From Escherichia phage vB_EcoS-BECP10: DNA of 47,915 nucleotides. The stretch lies in the sequence record MW286156.1, one strand, 5' to 3'. Positions 3,038-47,915 of the stretch are shown here, piece after piece. The notes beneath the pieces are model-generated. The model worked only from the letters and a program-made list of their open reading frames with translations. It did not search any database and had not been told where the DNA came from. The position numbers were made by a program, and so were the translations under genes. The first letter of the stretch is position 1; the number at the start of each line of letters is the position of its first letter.

Positions 3038-3259
3038 ATGATTAACTTTAAAGAAGCAGCAACAGAAATTATGGACTTCGAGCGAGAGCTAATATGGATG
3101 GGACATAATATGACCAATCTGGAAATTGCTAACCAGATTTGGCACTCTAAGATGAATCCACAGGATAGATTAGAAGTTATGAACATAGTGGGCGAAGTGA
3201 AAGGTAGTGCATTAATGAAGCTTCGCGCTTGTCATTCTTACATTGCCAAGCAACTTTAA
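3038..3259 (+). CDS. Hypothetical early protein (73 aa)
   Basis: ORF track; downstream of module 5. Confidence 0.45.
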   Translation: MINFKEAATEIMDFERELIWMGHNMTNLEIANQIWHSKMNPQDRLEVMNIVGEVKGSALMKLRACHSYIAKQL

Positions 3260-3272
3260 GGGGGTAGATAAT

Positions 3273-3464
3273 ATGACGCAGGAGCAGGTTGTACAACTAA
3301 TGGTACGCTATAACCAGATATTAGCATTACTTAAGGCTGAGCGTGTAGACCAATCTGACCGCGATGCTGTAAAGGCGTGCCTATCTGAGACTGTTCAACC
3401 AAAACATAACTATGACTGTTATATTTACTTTTACGGTAGGACAATACCGTTTGATTTGGAATAG
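3273..3464 (+). CDS. Hypothetical early protein (63 aa)
   Basis: Internal ATG of track ORF 3243..3464 preceded by RBS AAGGGGG. Confidence 0.4.
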   Translation: MTQEQVVQLMVRYNQILALLKAERVDQSDRDAVKACLSETVQPKHNYDCYIYFYGRTIPFDLE

Positions 3465-3505
3465 CGTTAGTTTGTATTTTCTTTGATTGATATATCAAAC
3501 TAGCA

Positions 3506-3586
3506 AATAGCACTTTTTGCTAAAACAAAATCGCAAGGATGCGGTATTATCTTTACATCGAAACGAAAAAGCGAAAGGTAAAAAAA
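3506..3586 (+). promoter_or_regulatory. Early promoter module 6: IR 3508-3522, hairpin CGCAAGGATGCG, TATTAT, CATCGAAACGAAA
   Basis: AATAGCACTTTTTGCTAAAAC, hairpin, TATTAT, leader, RBS AAAGG. Confidence 0.65.
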
Positions 3587-34894: not shown

Positions 34895-34954
34895 TCTTTC
34901 CTCCTGTTTATTCTATAAATGAATTATATACTTTATGATTCATTTAGTACAGAC

Positions 34955-34979
34955 GTAAAAAAGCCCTCCGAAGAGGGCT
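34955..34979 (-). terminator. Intrinsic terminator after the putative major capsid gene
   Basis: Minus-strand hairpin AGCCCTC-TTCG-GAGGGCT followed by TTTTTTACG. Confidence 0.65.
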
Positions 34980-34984
34980 ATTTA

Positions 34985-35929
34985 TTAGAAGGTGATACCT
35001 TTCATTACTGCAACGGTCAGAGGTCGGTAGATAACCAGGCCAGTAGACTTGGAGGTCACAGGAAACTTGAAGTGCAAATCCTTCGGTTGAGCTGGAAGGA
35101 CGTGAGTAGCTTCTGGAATCTCAATGCTCATGTTCAATGGGTCGTACTCATAAGCAATTGCAGCCTTGCCGTTTGCGCCATCGTAGTTGTCAAGGAGTTG
35201 CAGGAACTCCACCTGTACGCCATTGTTGTTACGGGCAAAGAACTCAAAGTAGCTAATACCAGTATTCGGGACCAGAGTTTGCATTACTCGACGAGCGGAT
35301 GCCGGAAGAAGCAGCCTGTTAGCTCGATGGATGCCTTGGGTTGCTGTTTCGATAATATCCAGCAGGCTATTAACGTCAGCGTAAGCAGTCTGTGCTGTAG
35401 TCCATGCGCCGCTTGGAACTACCTGGTTTACGTTGTCGTAATCGAATACAGACTTAATGCCGTGAGGTGCGGAGCCTTTCCAAACTAGCTTATCAAGCAG
35501 GTTGTCATGAGCTTCGAATGCAAGAGCCTGTTTGCGAGAAGATAGTGATTGACCAGTAGCCGCGCCAGCCGCAATCTCATCGATGGAAACCAGGAATGCA
35601 TTACCAAAACGGAACACCTTACCTTGCTTCTCTTGCATCAGTGCATCAACCGTCGGCAAATCATCTGAATAATCAGCTACAATCTGAGCTAAGCCAACAC
35701 CATCCATTTCGCCGTATTCGAAGTATTTAGCGTAAGCGCCAATTTCGTTAGTGACCGGGAACAGGTTAACTACAGACGTTTCAGCATATTCGCGATCGTA
35801 GTTACGGTTAAGCGTCTGAGTCAGCTGTTTGATGGTCCAAATGCCAGCTGCATCAGCTTTTTCAACACCCATGTTACGCAGGTGTTCGGTGATTTTGTTC
35901 TGCTCGAAAGCATCTAGCTTAATAGTCAT
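34985..35929 (-). CDS. Putative major capsid protein (314 aa)
   Basis: Size, position in head module, strong terminator immediately downstream. Confidence 0.5.
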   Translation of the reverse strand: MTIKLDAFEQNKITEHLRNMGVEKADAAGIWTIKQLTQTLNRNYDREYAETSVVNLFPVTNEIGAYAKYFEYGEMDGVGLAQIVADYSDDLPTVDALMQEKQGKVFRFGNAFLVSIDEIAAGAATGQSLSSRKQALAFEAHDNLLDKLVWKGSAPHGIKSVFDYDNVNQVVPSGAWTTAQTAYADVNSLLDIIETATQGIHRANRLLLPASARRVMQTLVPNTGISYFEFFARNNNGVQVEFLQLLDNYDGANGKAAIAYEYDPLNMSIEIPEATHVLPAQPKDLHFKFPVTSKSTGLVIYRPLTVAVMKGITF

Positions 35930-38571: not shown

Positions 38572-39325
38572 TAATTAAATTCTCCCATTTAGGAACAGCC
38601 CAGCAACGACACCCGTATTGCTGACCGGGGAATATCGCAAGGCTGTCAAGTTTTCCAGCGTCCGAACCATCTGATTTAAAGCTAACCCCCTCACGCAGAA
38701 CGTGAGATGGTCGCTCTTTGTCGTCAAGTCTACCACGCCAAACATACTGAGATACACTGGCATCTTCAAGCCTTCTCCGCATAAGGTTTGAGTTTAGAGA
38801 CCCTGTAATTCCAGCAGCGATATTTGCTGTTCTCTTTCTGTAGATTCGGTATCTATCATCAAGGTCAACAGTGTTACCAGCCTGCGCAGTAATGGCGTTG
38901 TTTATGAAATCATCCTTGATGTTGTTTAGCAGCTTTGATGCACTTAACTGCGTGCCAACAATCCAGGAGTTCCTGGTGTCGAGCCACCATGGTTCATCCG
39001 CGTTAATACCATACAATCCTAGCGCAAGAACTACAGGATTATTCTTACCTCCGGAGTTGTTGGCCACCTTAAGGAATTGCGCCGAGTTATAACGATATAT
39101 TGCTAGTGCCAGCGCAGGCAGAGTGGAAACAAAACCAGATAGCAGCGCTGAGATTACATCTGAAAGGTCTGAATCTTCCTCTTCAATCTCCTGCGCTGTG
39201 TCAATTTTTAGCCTCTTTGCAGATAACTTCATTTGCTCAATAAGTTCAGATACCGCAACCAAAAGGCTGCGGTTAATCTGGCTCTCAATTATTTGCGGAT
39301 ACATCCAGCGGGTCTTCTGATTCAT
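38561..39325 (-). CDS. Head morphogenesis / minor head protein (254 aa)
   Basis: Position directly after portal; C-terminal CRCW motif. Confidence 0.45.
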   Translation of the reverse strand: MNQKTRWMYPQIIESQINRSLLVAVSELIEQMKLSAKRLKIDTAQEIEEEDSDLSDVISALLSGFVSTLPALALAIYRYNSAQFLKVANNSGGKNNPVVLALGLYGINADEPWWLDTRNSWIVGTQLSASKLLNNIKDDFINNAITAQAGNTVDLDDRYRIYRKRTANIAAGITGSLNSNLMRRRLEDASVSQYVWRGRLDDKERPSHVLREGVSFKSDGSDAGKLDSLAIFPGQQYGCRCWAVPKWENLINEE

Positions 39326-40559
39326 TAATTACAACCTCCGTTTGAATTGAGCCTTCGCCAATCTTAACCTCAGTTGAAATTGCGCGCAACGTATCTCTTG
39401 CTTCGTCTGCGTCAATGATTCCAGCTGCAATCAATGCGGCAACTGAATTGACGTTCTTCTCAAGAATCTCAGATTTATCCTTGTCACTAACCTGCGATAG
39501 AGGGTTAAATTCTACTGACCACTCTTGCTCGGTTACGATGAACGGCAGCAGGAACTCAAGCAGAGGCAATAATTCAGCCTTGCGCTTACGGTCAACATAA
39601 CCGTAGAAAGTCTCTAGAGCAGTGTTCTGGCTTGCTGACACACCACCAACATTCTTACCCTTAAGGATAATCTCATGAATACCGCTCAGAGCAACGATTC
39701 GATCGAACTTCTGACTCAGAAATGTATCAATACCGCCAATATCTGAGTTGAGAACGTTGTACTCTTCACTATCCGCGTCAATCCCGATAGCCTGACCAAC
39801 GCCACTGTTATTATCCACCTGAGCCAGACGTAAACGAGCCGCTCCAAATCCATCTGAATCATCACATAAGTCAGCAAGGCCTTTTGCTTTCCACACCGCC
39901 TGCTGTTTACGACGAAGTAACTGAGTAGCCAGTCGCTCACAGTTCTGATAGTCGTCAATCGCGTCAATTAAGTCACCAGTTAGTACGCTTGCGCCCCAGC
40001 CATCGTTATTACGACGTAGGTTGTTAGGTACTCGCTCGCCATCAATGATGTGACAGCGTGTATAGTGCACATCGTAGAACGTTGCCGACCCGTTTGGCGT
40101 GATGCGGTAAGTTAATGGCTTACCAAAACGCGCGTTACGTGGATTCTCCTCGCGAGTCTGGACCTTAATTTGCTGACGGTCGTATACGCGAACTGTTTCA
40201 AGTTCCGCACCTTCACGAACCGGGCTGGTTAGCGCCCTTCCATCCTTCACAATTGCCACTACAGCAGCGCCACCGTATAGTCTCGCCCAGGCTAGTGCGT
40301 CGATTACGTTATCTGAAAGGCCTAAATCATCCCATCGCGACCAGAAAGCACCTTCGTCGTCGATACCTTCAATACTAAAGCCTGCGCCAAGTGCGACCTC
40401 TGGAACGATATCAATAATTCGACGAACCAGAGCGCTGCTGACATAAAGTTGCTCAAGCTGCGCTGGCGCTGTTAGGCCAAGACTGCCAAACTTTCCGTAA
40501 ACCTCACTACCATCACTCCCGCTAAGAAAGATGTTTGCGTAGCTGTCTGCTTTTACCAT
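39285..40559 (-). CDS. Portal protein (424 aa)
   Basis: Size and position directly after large terminase; RBS GGAGAAATTAC. Confidence 0.6.
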   Translation of the reverse strand: MVKADSYANIFLSGSDGSEVYGKFGSLGLTAPAQLEQLYVSSALVRRIIDIVPEVALGAGFSIEGIDDEGAFWSRWDDLGLSDNVIDALAWARLYGGAAVVAIVKDGRALTSPVREGAELETVRVYDRQQIKVQTREENPRNARFGKPLTYRITPNGSATFYDVHYTRCHIIDGERVPNNLRRNNDGWGASVLTGDLIDAIDDYQNCERLATQLLRRKQQAVWKAKGLADLCDDSDGFGAARLRLAQVDNNSGVGQAIGIDADSEEYNVLNSDIGGIDTFLSQKFDRIVALSGIHEIILKGKNVGGVSASQNTALETFYGYVDRKRKAELLPLLEFLLPFIVTEQEWSVEFNPLSQVSDKDKSEILEKNVNSVAALIAAGIIDADEARDTLRAISTEVKIGEGSIQTEVVINESEDPLDVSANN

Positions 40560-40608: not shown

Positions 40609-42180
40609 TTACTTAACGCCAGCTAGCCTCATTAAGCGGGCTCTCGGATCGTCACTCAAGTTCAATTCACAGTTGATGGCCATTGTTGTCGTATCCACAA
40701 TGTCATCATGGGGATGAGAATCGTCAGCAGTGAACGCCGAGAACTCGGTTAATAGCGAGGTAAGCCATGGCGCAGAGTCAGGCAGAACTACGTTACCAGC
40801 TTTAATCTGTGGCAGTGCGCTCATCACCCTGGTTAACTTATCTGTATCTGGAACGAAAGGCTCGATAGGAGTTCGCATTACCCGACCCGCCGACTGGATA
40901 AGTCCTATTCCAGACGCTTTCTTCTCGATAATAACCTTGCGCAATATACCATCTGTCTTACTAGCTGCTCTATGCTTACTCTCAAAGTCCAGAAGAGTTT
41001 GCTCAAGTTCAGGTGCTTCCCATTTACCCCTTACCATATCCAGAAGATAAAGCCTGTTATCTTTGCGCCCCCATAGCTGGAATACTGAGTAGTCGCTATA
41101 ACTCTTAGTAGTCATGGCAGTATCAGCCGTAATGAAACGGTAGTCATACTTGACTGGCGGCCTGTTATTCTCATCGAGGCGAGCAAACCAATCTACGTTG
41201 ATCAGGTTTCCACCCAGAGCTACTGGAGATTGTTGGTACTGGCTTAGGAATGTGTACGGATCTGAGTCCCACATTGCCATCAAGTCATGCACAGATTCCT
41301 TCTGCGGGAAGTAGCTGTAATACTTAACACCATCTCGCTCGACGTACTCGGATGAAAGCACGTCCTTCTCGAACTGCTCACGAATCCAGTCAGGGAGTTC
41401 ATTCACATATTCTTCAGTGACCAGCGCCGGTATCTTCACTACATCAAAGTCGATACCCATACCACCAGAAGTCATGAACCACGTTGAATCCTGAGTATGA
41501 AGCCTTTGCTGAATTGACAGAATTGGCGTAGCTTTACCTTTAACGCTACTCGCCCTACGTGAGCGAATGGTGTTTTTGAGAAGAGTGTGCACGGCCTCTC
41601 GCCTGACTTTGCTGAACATATCATCCGCTTTGTCTACATCATCAAGCATCAAACAGCCGCTATAGTTATCTGTAATATATCCACCGCGAGCGCCTGTAAT
41701 CTGACCGCCAATTGCTTTTGATATTGATTCAAACTTAACCTTACCAGAATCATCAAGAACCTGAATCTCATCATCCTTACATGTGCCAAACTTGCAGGGC
41801 CACAACTCCTGGAATTCTGTCGATTTGATAAGGTCACGAACCCGTTTAGAGTTACGCTTCACGAGGCTATCTGAGAATGACAGGCTAAGATTGCGAACCT
41901 TCTTTAGTTTAAGCATTGAGTATACTGGGAAGTGAATGGATGTAATCTCGGTTTTTCCGGCCCCGGGAGCTACGTTAATGATTGTATCTCTGCGTTGACC
42001 GCTAATAACCTCATCGATGATTCTACAGAGGTACTTATGGTGCCAGTTAGGAATATAACGCTCAGATTGACTTATTTGAAACCACACCCTTAAGAAACCC
42101 TCGAAGCTATGAGTTGATAGTGCCTTTATAGCTAGCTTTTCTGGGTATGTTAAGTCTTCCCATACAATTATTTCACTCAT
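40609..42180 (-). CDS. Terminase large subunit
   Basis: Walker A-like INVAPGAGKTE, ATPase and nuclease-like regions; start taken at MSEIIVWE. Confidence 0.8.
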   Translation of the reverse strand: MSEIIVWEDLTYPEKLAIKALSTHSFEGFLRVWFQISQSERYIPNWHHKYLCRIIDEVISGQRRDTIINVAPGAGKTEITSIHFPVYSMLKLKKVRNLSLSFSDSLVKRNSKRVRDLIKSTEFQELWPCKFGTCKDDEIQVLDDSGKVKFESISKAIGGQITGARGGYITDNYSGCLMLDDVDKADDMFSKVRREAVHTLLKNTIRSRRASSVKGKATPILSIQQRLHTQDSTWFMTSGGMGIDFDVVKIPALVTEEYVNELPDWIREQFEKDVLSSEYVERDGVKYYSYFPQKESVHDLMAMWDSDPYTFLSQYQQSPVALGGNLINVDWFARLDENNRPPVKYDYRFITADTAMTTKSYSDYSVFQLWGRKDNRLYLLDMVRGKWEAPELEQTLLDFESKHRAASKTDGILRKVIIEKKASGIGLIQSAGRVMRTPIEPFVPDTDKLTRVMSALPQIKAGNVVLPDSAPWLTSLLTEFSAFTADDSHPHDDIVDTTTMAINCELNLSDDPRARLMRLAGVK

Positions 42181-42688
42181 GATTGCAGAACTCCCCATGT
42201 ATACTCTCCCTCATTGATGCCGCCACCTTTGCTGCTTCTTCTTTTTTCTTAAACCAACCTCCAAACATCATTTTTCCATTTATTTTCACATATGCAATAT
42301 ACTCATTCCTTCTCTTTGAGTAGCTAACACCTTTGTAGCCAGATTTATTATTGCTCATCATAGACTTATTCATTCCGTTTTGGCTAAGCGATGCATCCCT
42401 AAGATTAGAAATCCTATCGTCTGATGGGTCACGATTTATGTGGTCAACCGCGCCAACTGGCTCAAAGCCATAATACAAATAAAATGCAATCCTTGAGCTC
42501 TTGTATATCTTCCCTTGTATCTGTACTTGATATCGACCGCTAGCTTTGTGCAAAGTCCCAGCCTCGGATCCGATTATGGTTTTGCTACTTACTTTTGATG
42601 TCCACGTTAGCTTTCCCGTTTCAGGATTGTAACTCAGAATTCCTCTAAGAAAATCCAGAGGCGGCATAGGCTTCGCTCTATCTAACAT
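42173..42688 (-). CDS. HNH endonuclease with AP2 DNA-binding domain (homing-endonuclease-like)
   Basis: HNH motif VDHINRDPSDDRISNLR and AP2-like GYKGVSYSKRRNEYIAYVKINGK; between the terminase subunit genes. Confidence 0.7.
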   Translation of the reverse strand: MLDRAKPMPPLDFLRGILSYNPETGKLTWTSKVSSKTIIGSEAGTLHKASGRYQVQIQGKIYKSSRIAFYLYYGFEPVGAVDHINRDPSDDRISNLRDASLSQNGMNKSMMSNNKSGYKGVSYSKRRNEYIAYVKINGKMMFGGWFKKKEEAAKVAASMRESIHGEFCNHE

Positions 42689-42733
42689 AAAAAACCCCAC
42701 TCGTTTATTGAATGGGGTAATTATATCAACATA

Positions 42734-43249
42734 TCAAAGTTTATCAACTATTGATTCAAGCGCAGCCTTCATAGCTTCCTCATCGTTCACTACTGCATTG
42801 GAAGCATTGTTGATGTTAACCTCTTGCGGCTTATCGATGCCTAAGTCCTTGCCAATCAGTCCAGGGTTGACGATGTTGTTAACGCCAAGCTGATACTTCT
42901 GCTCAAAGATTACCGAATCCACAAACTCCATCACCTCATCAAATCCAGGCGAAGAGCGCCATTTACTGATGGCATTATGACCAACGCCGCAGAAAAGTTG
43001 GAATCCAGTTATCGTAAATATTCGTGGCTTATGAACAAGGTTTTCCGTTACAACACCCTGAAAGCTCGCCGTTTCAATGGCCTTAATCGCTTGCTCTTCA
43101 GCCCAGCTGAAATACCTTACAGCCATGTCGAATACCTGCTCGGGAGTGTATCTGTGGTTAATCTTAAGATTGGCAATGTCGCCATACTTCTTATTGTAAA
43201 GCTCCTTGAAGTTACCAATCTTCTGGTGAATTTTTTTCTCTTCTGACAT
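42734..43249 (-). CDS. Putative terminase small subunit (171 aa)
   Basis: Position immediately upstream of HNH and large terminase; RBS AGGAGGAATATC. Confidence 0.45.
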   Translation of the reverse strand: MSEEKKIHQKIGNFKELYNKKYGDIANLKINHRYTPEQVFDMAVRYFSWAEEQAIKAIETASFQGVVTENLVHKPRIFTITGFQLFCGVGHNAISKWRSSPGFDEVMEFVDSVIFEQKYQLGVNNIVNPGLIGKDLGIDKPQEVNINNASNAVVNDEEAMKAALESIVDKL

Positions 43250-43294
43250 TTGATATTCCTCCTGTTTTAAAAGTCATTGTACCATGACTATGGA

Positions 43295-43321
43295 CGAAAA
43301 AAAGCCCTCACAAGGAGGGCA
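43295..43321 (-). terminator. Intrinsic terminator
   Basis: Minus-strand hairpin GCCCTCC-TTGT-GAGGGC followed by TTTTTTTCG. Confidence 0.6.
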
Positions 43322-43348
43322 AAGTACTGCATTGCGAGATGACCAATC

Positions 43349-43534
43349 TCAAACGAGGGATACTTTATCAACGCTGACTTTGTGGACTGTCAGGTCAATC
43401 TTAAATGCTGCCTTTGCGGCTGCAACTGCTTCTTCAGGGCTTTTAGCAATGAACCTACCTTCGTAGGATTGCTGGCAAGATTTGCATTGCCGACCCATTA
43501 GGCGGGAAGTTAAACGGACTTCGTAGTTATTCAC
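43349..43534 (-). CDS. Hypothetical small protein (61 aa, GTG start)
   Basis: ORF track; GGAG 9 nt upstream of GTG; CKSC Cys pair; lies between the tRNA and a terminator. Confidence 0.3.
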   Translation of the reverse strand: MNNYEVRLTSRLMGRQCKSCQQSYEGRFIAKSPEEAVAAAKAAFKIDLTVHKVSVDKVSLV

Positions 43535-43550
43535 TAGGATGCTCCATGTT

Positions 43551-43626
43551 TGGTGTTCCGCACTGGACTCGAACCAGTAACTGAGACTTAGGAGGTCTCT
43601 GCGTTATCCTGTTACGCCAGCAGAAC
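43551..43626 (-). tRNA. tRNA-Arg (anticodon CCU, reads AGG), 76 nt with encoded CCA
   Basis: Manual cloverleaf: acceptor GTTCTGC/GCGGAAC, D-stem GCGT/ACGC with GG in loop, anticodon stem GAGAC/GTCTC with loop CTCCTAA, T-arm ACTGG-TTCGAGT-CCAGT, discriminator A, CCA. Confidence 0.8.
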
Positions 43627-47816: not shown

Positions 47817-47915
47817 ACGAATAGCACTTTTTGCTAAAGACAAATGGGGATGGCAAGGCTATAGTAAACTCATCAACAACGAGGAGATAGATATGAAGGT
47901 AAAAATAACAGCACT
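47817..47915. repeat. Second copy of the terminal direct repeat (duplicates IR module 1 and the first codons of the 77..271 gene)
   Basis: Identical to 1-99. Confidence 0.9.

Follow-up and report, generated by a model that had tools for sequence, protein, structure and literature searches.

A putative selfish HNH-AP2 homing endonuclease gene at the terminase junction of the T1-like coliphage vB_EcoS-BECP10

Wedged between the small (terS) and large (terL) terminase genes of Escherichia phage vB_EcoS-BECP10 (sequence record MW286156.1; the whole stretch of 47,915 nucleotides that was analysed is referred to as the window) is an open reading frame (ORF) encoding an HNH nuclease domain followed by an AP2-type DNA-binding domain. 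An earlier note on this DNA, which had correctly placed the ORF with terS upstream and terL downstream, left open whether it is a selfish homing element or a genuine packaging cofactor. Those were the right alternatives, and comparative evidence decides for the first: with a probability that we put at roughly 0.85, the ORF is a free-standing, I-HmuI-like HNH-AP2 homing endonuclease gene (HEG), a selfish element invading the terS/terL junction of T1-like phages of the genus Rogunavirus. We favour this reading because the gene is absent from most relatives, is surrounded by a sharply bounded tract of divergence, is a minority allele in the genus Webervirus as well, and retains its catalytic residues.

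The gene, its distribution and its flanking tracts

The ORF and its two domains occupy the following positions:

42173..42688, minus strand: predicted HNH-AP2 homing endonuclease ORF, 171 aa (ORF listing; Pfam HNH_3 and AP2; PHROG 99)
42374..42496, minus strand: HNH_3 catalytic core, residues 65-105, listed with D82, H83, N95, N104 and N107
42194..42343, minus strand: AP2-type DNA-binding domain, residues 116-165

Translation from the ATG at 42688 ends at the TGA at 42175..42173; an alternative GTG start at 42700 would make the product four codons longer. The gene is an ORF in its own right, intergenic between the terS stop and the terL start, and is not in an intron or intein. Pfam HNH_3 matches residues 65-105 (E=7.8e-10), AP2 matches residues 116-165 (E=9.6e-4, under the gathering score), and the match to PHROG 99, 'HNH endonuclease', is at 2.7e-63; no further Pfam family, the classical HNH family PF01844 included, was found in the protein at E<=0.1. 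The structure is one of two domains, the C-terminal one having an AP2 fold, and D82, H83, N95, N104 and N107 of the I-HmuI-like HNH domain are invariant. The HNH motif, the AP2 domain and the free-standing homing endonuclease architecture that had been read from the letters alone are thus all borne out, with no catalytic residue lost on alignment. Among orthologs dN/dS is 0.05-0.12, and by this measure of sequence change the protein is under purifying selection; among Webervirus orthologs dS is ~1. A search of the window found no paralogs. The product shares 99.4% identity with the protein annotated as 'HNH endonuclease' in phages AHP24, AHS24 and AHP42. The sole in-ORF difference from AHP24, at window position 42345, gives K instead of T at residue 115 (NNKSGY vs NNTSGY), in the segment that links the HNH domain to the AP2 domain, where most homologs have T or K.

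A critical issue is whether the gene is a fixed part of the terminase region. It is not. Thirty-six phage records match the terS-terL region of the window, and the ORF is present in seven of them, which represent four phages (AHP24, AHP42, AHS24 and AKS96) and their RefSeq copies; it is absent from Rogue1, JK06, C119, phiKP26, phiJLA23, Sf12, Phagiculus and others. Comparison of the junction in relatives with and without the insert, which the earlier note had called for, therefore reveals a HEG-less majority in which the terS stop and terL start overlap intact as ATGA and terL opens M-K-T-L-V-W-E-E; the comparison favours a selfish element. Three of the 36 records carry at the same junction a different HNH-AP2 ORF of 162 aa (phiEB49, UDF157lw; 32% aa identity), and the remainder have no HNH gene there at all.

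The pattern extends beyond the genus. The next-closest homologs, at 54-57% aa identity, all come from other Drexlerviridae, chiefly Klebsiella phages of the genus Webervirus, and all occupy the terS/terL junction. When the terS-HNH-terL stretch of the Webervirus phage NJS1 was compared with 362 matching Webervirus-type records, 23 (~6%) matched in one piece, and most of the 362 were without ~554 bp of it; universal presence at this position, which would have spoken for a terminase partner, is found in neither genus. In IMG/VR, a scan with the single HNH protein returned AHS24 only. A scan with the HNH alignment returned 80 loci, of which just two (L010 and L011) belong to the group at ~55% identity; the relatives at 30-43% identity include none beside a T1-type terminase and are uninformative on this junction.

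The second line of evidence is the footprint that surrounds the gene. Two tracts flank the insert:

42737..43091, minus strand: left co-conversion tract (putative), the 3' 355 nt of terS (sliding identity, mismatch lists)
41572..42154, minus strand: right co-conversion tract (putative), the 5' ~600 nt of terL (sliding identity, mismatch lists)

Against HEG-less JK06 there is not one mismatch in 43092 to 43399 nor in 41246 to 41571; within 41572..43091 the flanks of the insert, 15-30% divergent as co-conversion would leave them, accumulate ~190 mismatches in ~940 nt, mostly spaced in threes or at third codon positions, as synonymous differences between diverged alleles appear. The left tract is ~15% divergent from both JK06 and Rogue1, and upstream of 43091 the window is 100% identical to both. 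On the right, identity to JK06 is 69-91%: it is at its lowest, 69-75%, over the 200 nt of terL that adjoin the insert, rises with distance and reaches 100% beyond 41571. The pattern repeats against Rogue1, and it recurs independently in Webervirus, where NJS1 (with HEG) and NJR15 (HEG-less) are 96-100% identical outside approximately the last 130 nt of terS and the first 600 nt of terL. A search of 50,697 phage records for the 601-nt terL allele beside the insert gave matches at 100% identity to the four HEG-carrying AH phages alone, and no other record rose above 80%. AKS96, a different species, differs from the window by three mismatches across 41564..42778, and yet the 3' third of its terL is ~30% divergent and its left boundary differs; given these different tract ends, the cassette has apparently been exchanged at least twice. 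The tract is a footprint and not an observed event, of the kind that is produced when a break is repaired from a HEG-carrying genome (PMC2988022), and it lies where such elements might be expected: HEGs cluster at terminase genes and at recombination boundaries, and phage nuclease genes in general are found at the limits of genetic exchange (PMC10448857).

The 162-aa ORF merits a word of its own. It occupies positions 3062-3550 of locus L004 in phiEB49, where it is gp59, and 3063-3551 of locus L005 in UDF157lw, has its own strong Shine-Dalgarno (SD) sequence, and overlaps terL through a TAATG stop/start. The 3' allele of terS in the window (42800-43099) is 100% identical in UDF157lw. The alignments suggest that one endonuclease gene, of the window type or the UDF157lw type, replaced the other inside the same flanks.

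A candidate homing site in terL

If the gene homes, the sequence that it recognizes should be found in HEG-less relatives. The most likely target is an inverted repeat, GCCAGCCGAnAAGCTGGCA, at codons 9-16 of terL, which is kept in HEG-less genomes of both genera and absent from every HEG-carrying allele examined; this mutual exclusion is what makes it our candidate homing site. Its counterpart in the window is:

42130..42153, minus strand: altered candidate homing site, putatively cleavage-resistant (TTAACATACCCAGAAAAGCTAGCT vs ATGACGCCAGCCGAAAAGCTGGCA in HEG-less phages)

The conserved block reads ATG ACG CCA GC[C/T] GAA AAG CTG GCA and contains GCCAGC-N6-GCTGGC. Its conservation stands out among eight HEG-less Rogunavirinae whose terL genes are 75-98% identical and in which 76% of third codon positions vary: codons 9-16 are unique in terL as an eight-codon stretch with at least seven invariant third positions and, equally, as a 24-nt window in which no more than one column varies. 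The Webervirus phage NJR15, also HEG-less but only ~53% identical in TerL, carries CGCCAGCCGATAAGCTGGCA at the corresponding codons (positions 658-690 of locus L096). A scan of IMG/VR for GCCAGCCGANAAGCTGGCA returned 41 loci, 37 of them Drexlerviridae terL starts, and none of these 37 has an HNH gene within 900 nt upstream. By comparison, the block is altered – and each time differently – in every HEG-carrying allele examined (the window type, the phiEB49 type, NJS1, K53PH164C2, Roth08, FairDinkum, P11, ETEP102 and p111). The window version differs from the HEG-less version at 10 of 24 positions, and a search of the whole window genome allowing up to three mismatches found no copy of the motif. 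A recognition site and its resistant variants would be expected to look like this. AP2 domains have a reported preference for GC (PMC10448857), and the GC-rich motif fits it.

Such conservation raises the issue of what the inverted repeat does for a phage that has no HEG. Possible roles are those of a translational element, a binding site for a protein or a packaging (pac) signal. In Rogue1 RNA it is predicted to form a 6-bp hairpin inside a structure of -17.9 kcal/mol; the arms never vary, so that covariation cannot separate a role in RNA from one in DNA.

Homing could proceed as follows. During co-infection with an element-free relative the enzyme would bind the rival DNA through its AP2 domain and an N-terminal beta-sheet region, and would nick or cut it near the 5' end of terL, in all likelihood at the inverted repeat. 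The most likely lesion is a site-specific nick that is turned into a break during replication. The break would then be repaired by recombination templated by the HEG-carrying phage. In Rogue1, which is ~96% identical to the window, the annotation includes a RecE-like exonuclease VIII and a recombination (annealing) protein of the Erf/Red-beta type, and proteins of these two kinds would process and repair the break. Repair would copy in the HEG together with several hundred bp of its terS and terL flanks, including the resistant variant of the target.

Promoter, hairpin and coupling to terL

The cassette appears to bring with it the means of its own expression, and perhaps that of terL:

42720..42747, minus strand: predicted sigma-70-type promoter, TTGATA-16-TATAAT with extended -10 TG (11 of 12 consensus matches)
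42689..42718, minus strand: hairpin and six-T run (stem 42718..42694, 9 pairs; T 42694..42689; terminator scan)
42734..43249, minus strand: terS, small terminase, P22 gp3-type, 171 aa (PF16677 GP3_package, PHROG 606)
40609..42180, minus strand: terL, large terminase (longest ORF 40609..42198; Terminase_6C, PHROG 38)
42173..42180, minus strand: overlap of HNH stop and terL start, 8 nt, ATGAGTGA (read from sequence)

The -35 hexamer of the promoter is formed by the last codons of terS, and 2 nt separate the end of the -10 hexamer from the stem. The hairpin with its T-run, which had already been remarked upon as preceding the ORF, is real: nine pairs are followed by six T residues, the first of which is also the last base of the stem, and the run abuts the HNH ATG. 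It is one of five terminator-like sites in a 3.3-kb scan, where chance alone would give 2.8. The HNH ATG has a single SD-like sequence, and that lies in the 3' arm, GAGUGGGG. In silico, a read-through transcript from terS folds at -23.5 kcal/mol (z=-5.4) with SD and AUG buried, while RNA from the predicted start at ~42713 folds at -1 kcal/mol.

The arrangement is shared among homologs. Promoter and hairpin are annotated as separate features in AHP24 and AKS96 (the hairpin and promoter also in ETEP102), and NJS1, ETEP102 and Roth08 have promoter-like sites in the corresponding place. Equivalent hairpins with other stem sequences occur in four further lineages (NJS1; ETEP102/p111; K53PH164C2; Roth08/P11/FairDinkum), where the SD lies in the 3' arm and the -10 hexamer overlaps the stem or is 0-2 nt away; the window included, long RNAs fold at -15 to -23.5 kcal/mol and promoter-initiated RNAs at -1 to -4.3.

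The folding models thus portray a hairpin that would sequester the HNH ribosome-binding site in read-through transcripts. Transcripts from the cassette's own promoter should start inside the stem, within its 5' arm, where they would fail to form the hairpin and leave the ribosome site open: a likely expression switch. Control by a promoter inside a hairpin is known for T4 I-TevI, I-TevII, I-TevIII and segB and for Aeh1 mobE (PMC2988022). The hairpin also looks like an intrinsic terminator, and read-through from terS might accordingly end there, have its SD and AUG buried, or both. If the hairpin terminates, terL transcription would depend on the promoter of the cassette, and terL translation would depend on the stop/start overlap.

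The extent of that overlap hinges on the start of terL. An N-terminal signature shared by Rogue1, C119, Sf12 and NJR15 (M-x-x-[IL]-[IV]-W-E-[ED]) points to the ATG at 42180, from which the window protein reads M-S-E-I-I-V-W-E-D, and an equivalent start is annotated in AKS96; this is probably the real one. The 3' end of the HNH ORF does therefore overlap the terL start, as had been claimed, by 8 nt from this ATG and by 26 nt if the longest ORF (ATG 42198) is taken. Identical 8-nt geometry is seen in NJS1 (ATGGATAA) and ETEP102 (ATGGCTAA), making three lineages altogether. By inserting itself the element broke the translational coupling to terL, which the overlap would restore.

We offer one broader conjecture, tentatively, and would not be surprised to see it fail: that a single HNH-AP2 family has tracked the palindrome described above over Drexlerviridae genera with ~53% identical terminases; that the palindrome is a functional cis-signal, in RNA or DNA, for terL expression or packaging; and that the cassette replaces it with promoter, switch and coupling, so that terL becomes dependent on the element.

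Alternative explanations, related systems and genome setting

HNH proteins of the HK97 type are conserved in cos packaging modules, have no separate DNA-binding domain, and are encoded upstream of terS beside cos. Could the window ORF be a packaging cofactor of this sort, working with terminase as HK97 gp74 does to stimulate or complete DNA cutting? Like gp74 it is an HNH nuclease gene beside the terminase genes; it sits within the packaging module, translationally coupled to terL, and is under purifying selection. It is unlike gp74 in being sporadic – absent from most Rogunavirinae and most Webervirus records – and in its two-domain HNH_3 and AP2 composition, with no other Pfam family in evidence. 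Nor is there an association with cos-type packaging: TerS is P22-gp3-type, TerL belongs to Terminase_6C, and the window assembles as a circle. Most close relatives package their DNA with no HNH gene and with terS and terL directly coupled; the gene is therefore very unlikely to be needed for packaging. That an HNH protein beside terminase can be a cofactor is established by the HK97 case (PMC10448857), but the genomes of the closest relatives are circularly permuted (PMC4070988), which means headful and not cos packaging. Distribution, domain type and packaging mode together lead us to reject a gp74-type cofactor, to which we allow scarcely any probability.

The mosaic structure could also have arisen with no help from the endonuclease. 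The junction appears, from the sequences found there, to be a general insertion hotspot, hosting unrelated small hydrophobic ORFs (Sd1, Opt-719, e4/1c) as well as the second HNH lineage (phiEB49, UDF157lw); phage genomes are mosaic in general, and ordinary homologous recombination might have carried the ORF as a passive passenger. This we consider very improbable, given that divergence peaks beside the HEG, at the centre of the tract, that the pattern repeats in another genus, that the nuclease is intact and under purifying selection, and that no HEG-carrying allele examined has the conserved motif. Somewhat less improbable, though still unlikely, is that we are looking at a former HEG, now kept mainly because the phage depends on it for the terL promoter and coupling, or at a weapon against co-infecting relatives that no longer propagates itself efficiently. 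The hairpin/terminator would split terS and terL transcription, the only strong terL promoter is that of the cassette, the 8-nt overlap is conserved across lineages, the dS of ~1 among Webervirus orthologs implies long residence, and in T4 promoters tied to HEGs favour HEG retention (PMC2988022). Yet the cassette has recently passed from one distinct backbone to another, leaving tract ends that differ; its catalytic residues are invariant; and it is still a minority allele, where fixation by dependence would predict otherwise.

While an active selfish HEG is in our judgement the best explanation, several observations weigh against it or against parts of it. The HNH proteins of Rogunavirus and Webervirus have diverged to 56% aa identity, about as far as terL (53% aa), which fits ancient presence followed by many losses. 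The candidate site is only ~27-50 bp from the insertion point, so that linkage in the same tract could explain its exclusion, and the HEG-carrying and HEG-less sets comprise few independent lineages and are not independent samples. As to the switch, the transcription start at ~42713, within the 5' arm, is predicted solely from the usual -10 spacing; covariation compensates three of seven hairpin pairs, in eight sequences only; a simple scan called no terminator in ETEP102 or Roth08; and in L010 and L011 the U-run is broken.

Comparison with known systems places the selfish element in familiar company. HNH-AP2 proteins are a recognised HEG family of phages, cyanobacteria and ciliates (Magnani et al. 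2004, as reported in PMC10448857). The members of this family and the 'IPA-HNH' proteins of ICP1-like phages likewise join an N-terminal HNH to a C-terminal AP2 domain and are likewise free-standing, sporadic, often situated by terminase or other essential genes, and found at exchange boundaries; the ICP1 IPA-HNH proteins do not match the HNH_3 profile, whereas the window protein does (PMC10448857). Sporadic, mobile HNH genes are already recognised in Drexlerviridae (PMC13164509). In the papers searched we found no characterised HNH-AP2 member at the Drexlerviridae terS/terL junction and no study of that junction, and the paper describing AHP24, AHS24, AHP42 and AKS96 makes no mention of the HNH gene.

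There are parallels, too, with free-standing HEGs of the T4 family (MobE, SegB, SegG and others). These too are intergenic between conserved genes and have their target in a conserved neighbour; their flanks too are co-converted, and markers are excluded. Where the T4-type control operates (I-TevI, I-TevII, I-TevIII, segB, Aeh1 mobE), only the transcripts of the element's own promoter are without the hairpin that sequesters the ribosome-binding site (PMC2988022), and the same would hold for the window element. The differences are fourfold: the window promoter is of the host sigma-70 type, that of the T4 systems middle or late; the window hairpin also resembles an intrinsic terminator; the HEG stop overlaps the start of a downstream essential gene by 8 nt; and the candidate target is ~27-50 bp from the insertion, compared with hundreds of bp. 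I-HmuI, by which the catalytic domain is named, is intron-encoded and has a helical C-terminal DNA-binding module, not AP2. A phmmer search found no similarity between the window protein and I-HmuI (the HNH nicking endonuclease of Bacillus phage SPO1, PDB 1U3E) at E<=1.

The gene, then, is a selfish element of the ordinary sort, which GenBank records with 99% identity already label 'HNH endonuclease'; it is a new and uncharacterised member of a recognised HNH-AP2 HEG family. Its interest lies in the clean natural pair that it provides in culturable coliphages – a near-isogenic empty site (JK06, Rogue1) and a filled one (the window phage, AHP24) – with which HNH-AP2 target recognition and homing are directly testable in T1-like phages. 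To this are added a defined co-conversion tract, a candidate target of 19-24 bp common to Klebsiella phages, and a testable promoter-in-hairpin switch. The element would also explain the mosaic terminase region of therapeutic Rogunavirus and Webervirus phages, a matter of consequence for terL-based phylogeny and taxonomy.

The window itself is a complete circular assembly, with an exact terminal overlap of 99 nt and a genome of 47,816 bp. The direct repeat of 99 nt, at 1-99 and 47817-47915, is an assembler overlap and not a physical terminal repeat. The phage is T1-like and belongs to the genus Rogunavirus (Drexlerviridae): its terS-terL region is 99.6-99.7% identical to that of AHP24, AHP42 and AHS24, and the remainder of its genome ~96% identical to Rogue1, UDF157lw and AHP24. 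The genes of the terminase region (terS, the HNH ORF, terL and portal) are all on the minus strand, with portal downstream of terL:

39285..40559, minus strand: portal gene

Upstream of terS, also on the minus strand, is a single tRNA-Arg (anticodon CCT; 43551-43626), which is present in Rogue1 and the AH phages too.

A second mosaic boundary, again beside a homing endonuclease gene, was seen at the capsid gene. In Rogue1 a 'putative HNH endonuclease' directly follows the major capsid gene (L006, 11047-12615); the window (34905-35929, minus strand) is without it and has an intergenic stretch of ~83 nt instead. The capsid gene adjoining the Rogue1 HNH gene is ~69% identical between window and Rogue1, genomes that are ~96% identical elsewhere; here the polarity is reversed, the HNH gene being on the Rogue1 side. 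At the terS/terL junction itself, the unrelated ORFs of other phages span 25-37 codons – gp52 of Sd1 (L090, 1865-1978), one in Opt-719 (L092, 1861-1965) and one in e4/1c (L093, about 1845-1938). They encode hydrophobic, membrane-like peptides, and two of the three overlap both neighbours as ATGA.

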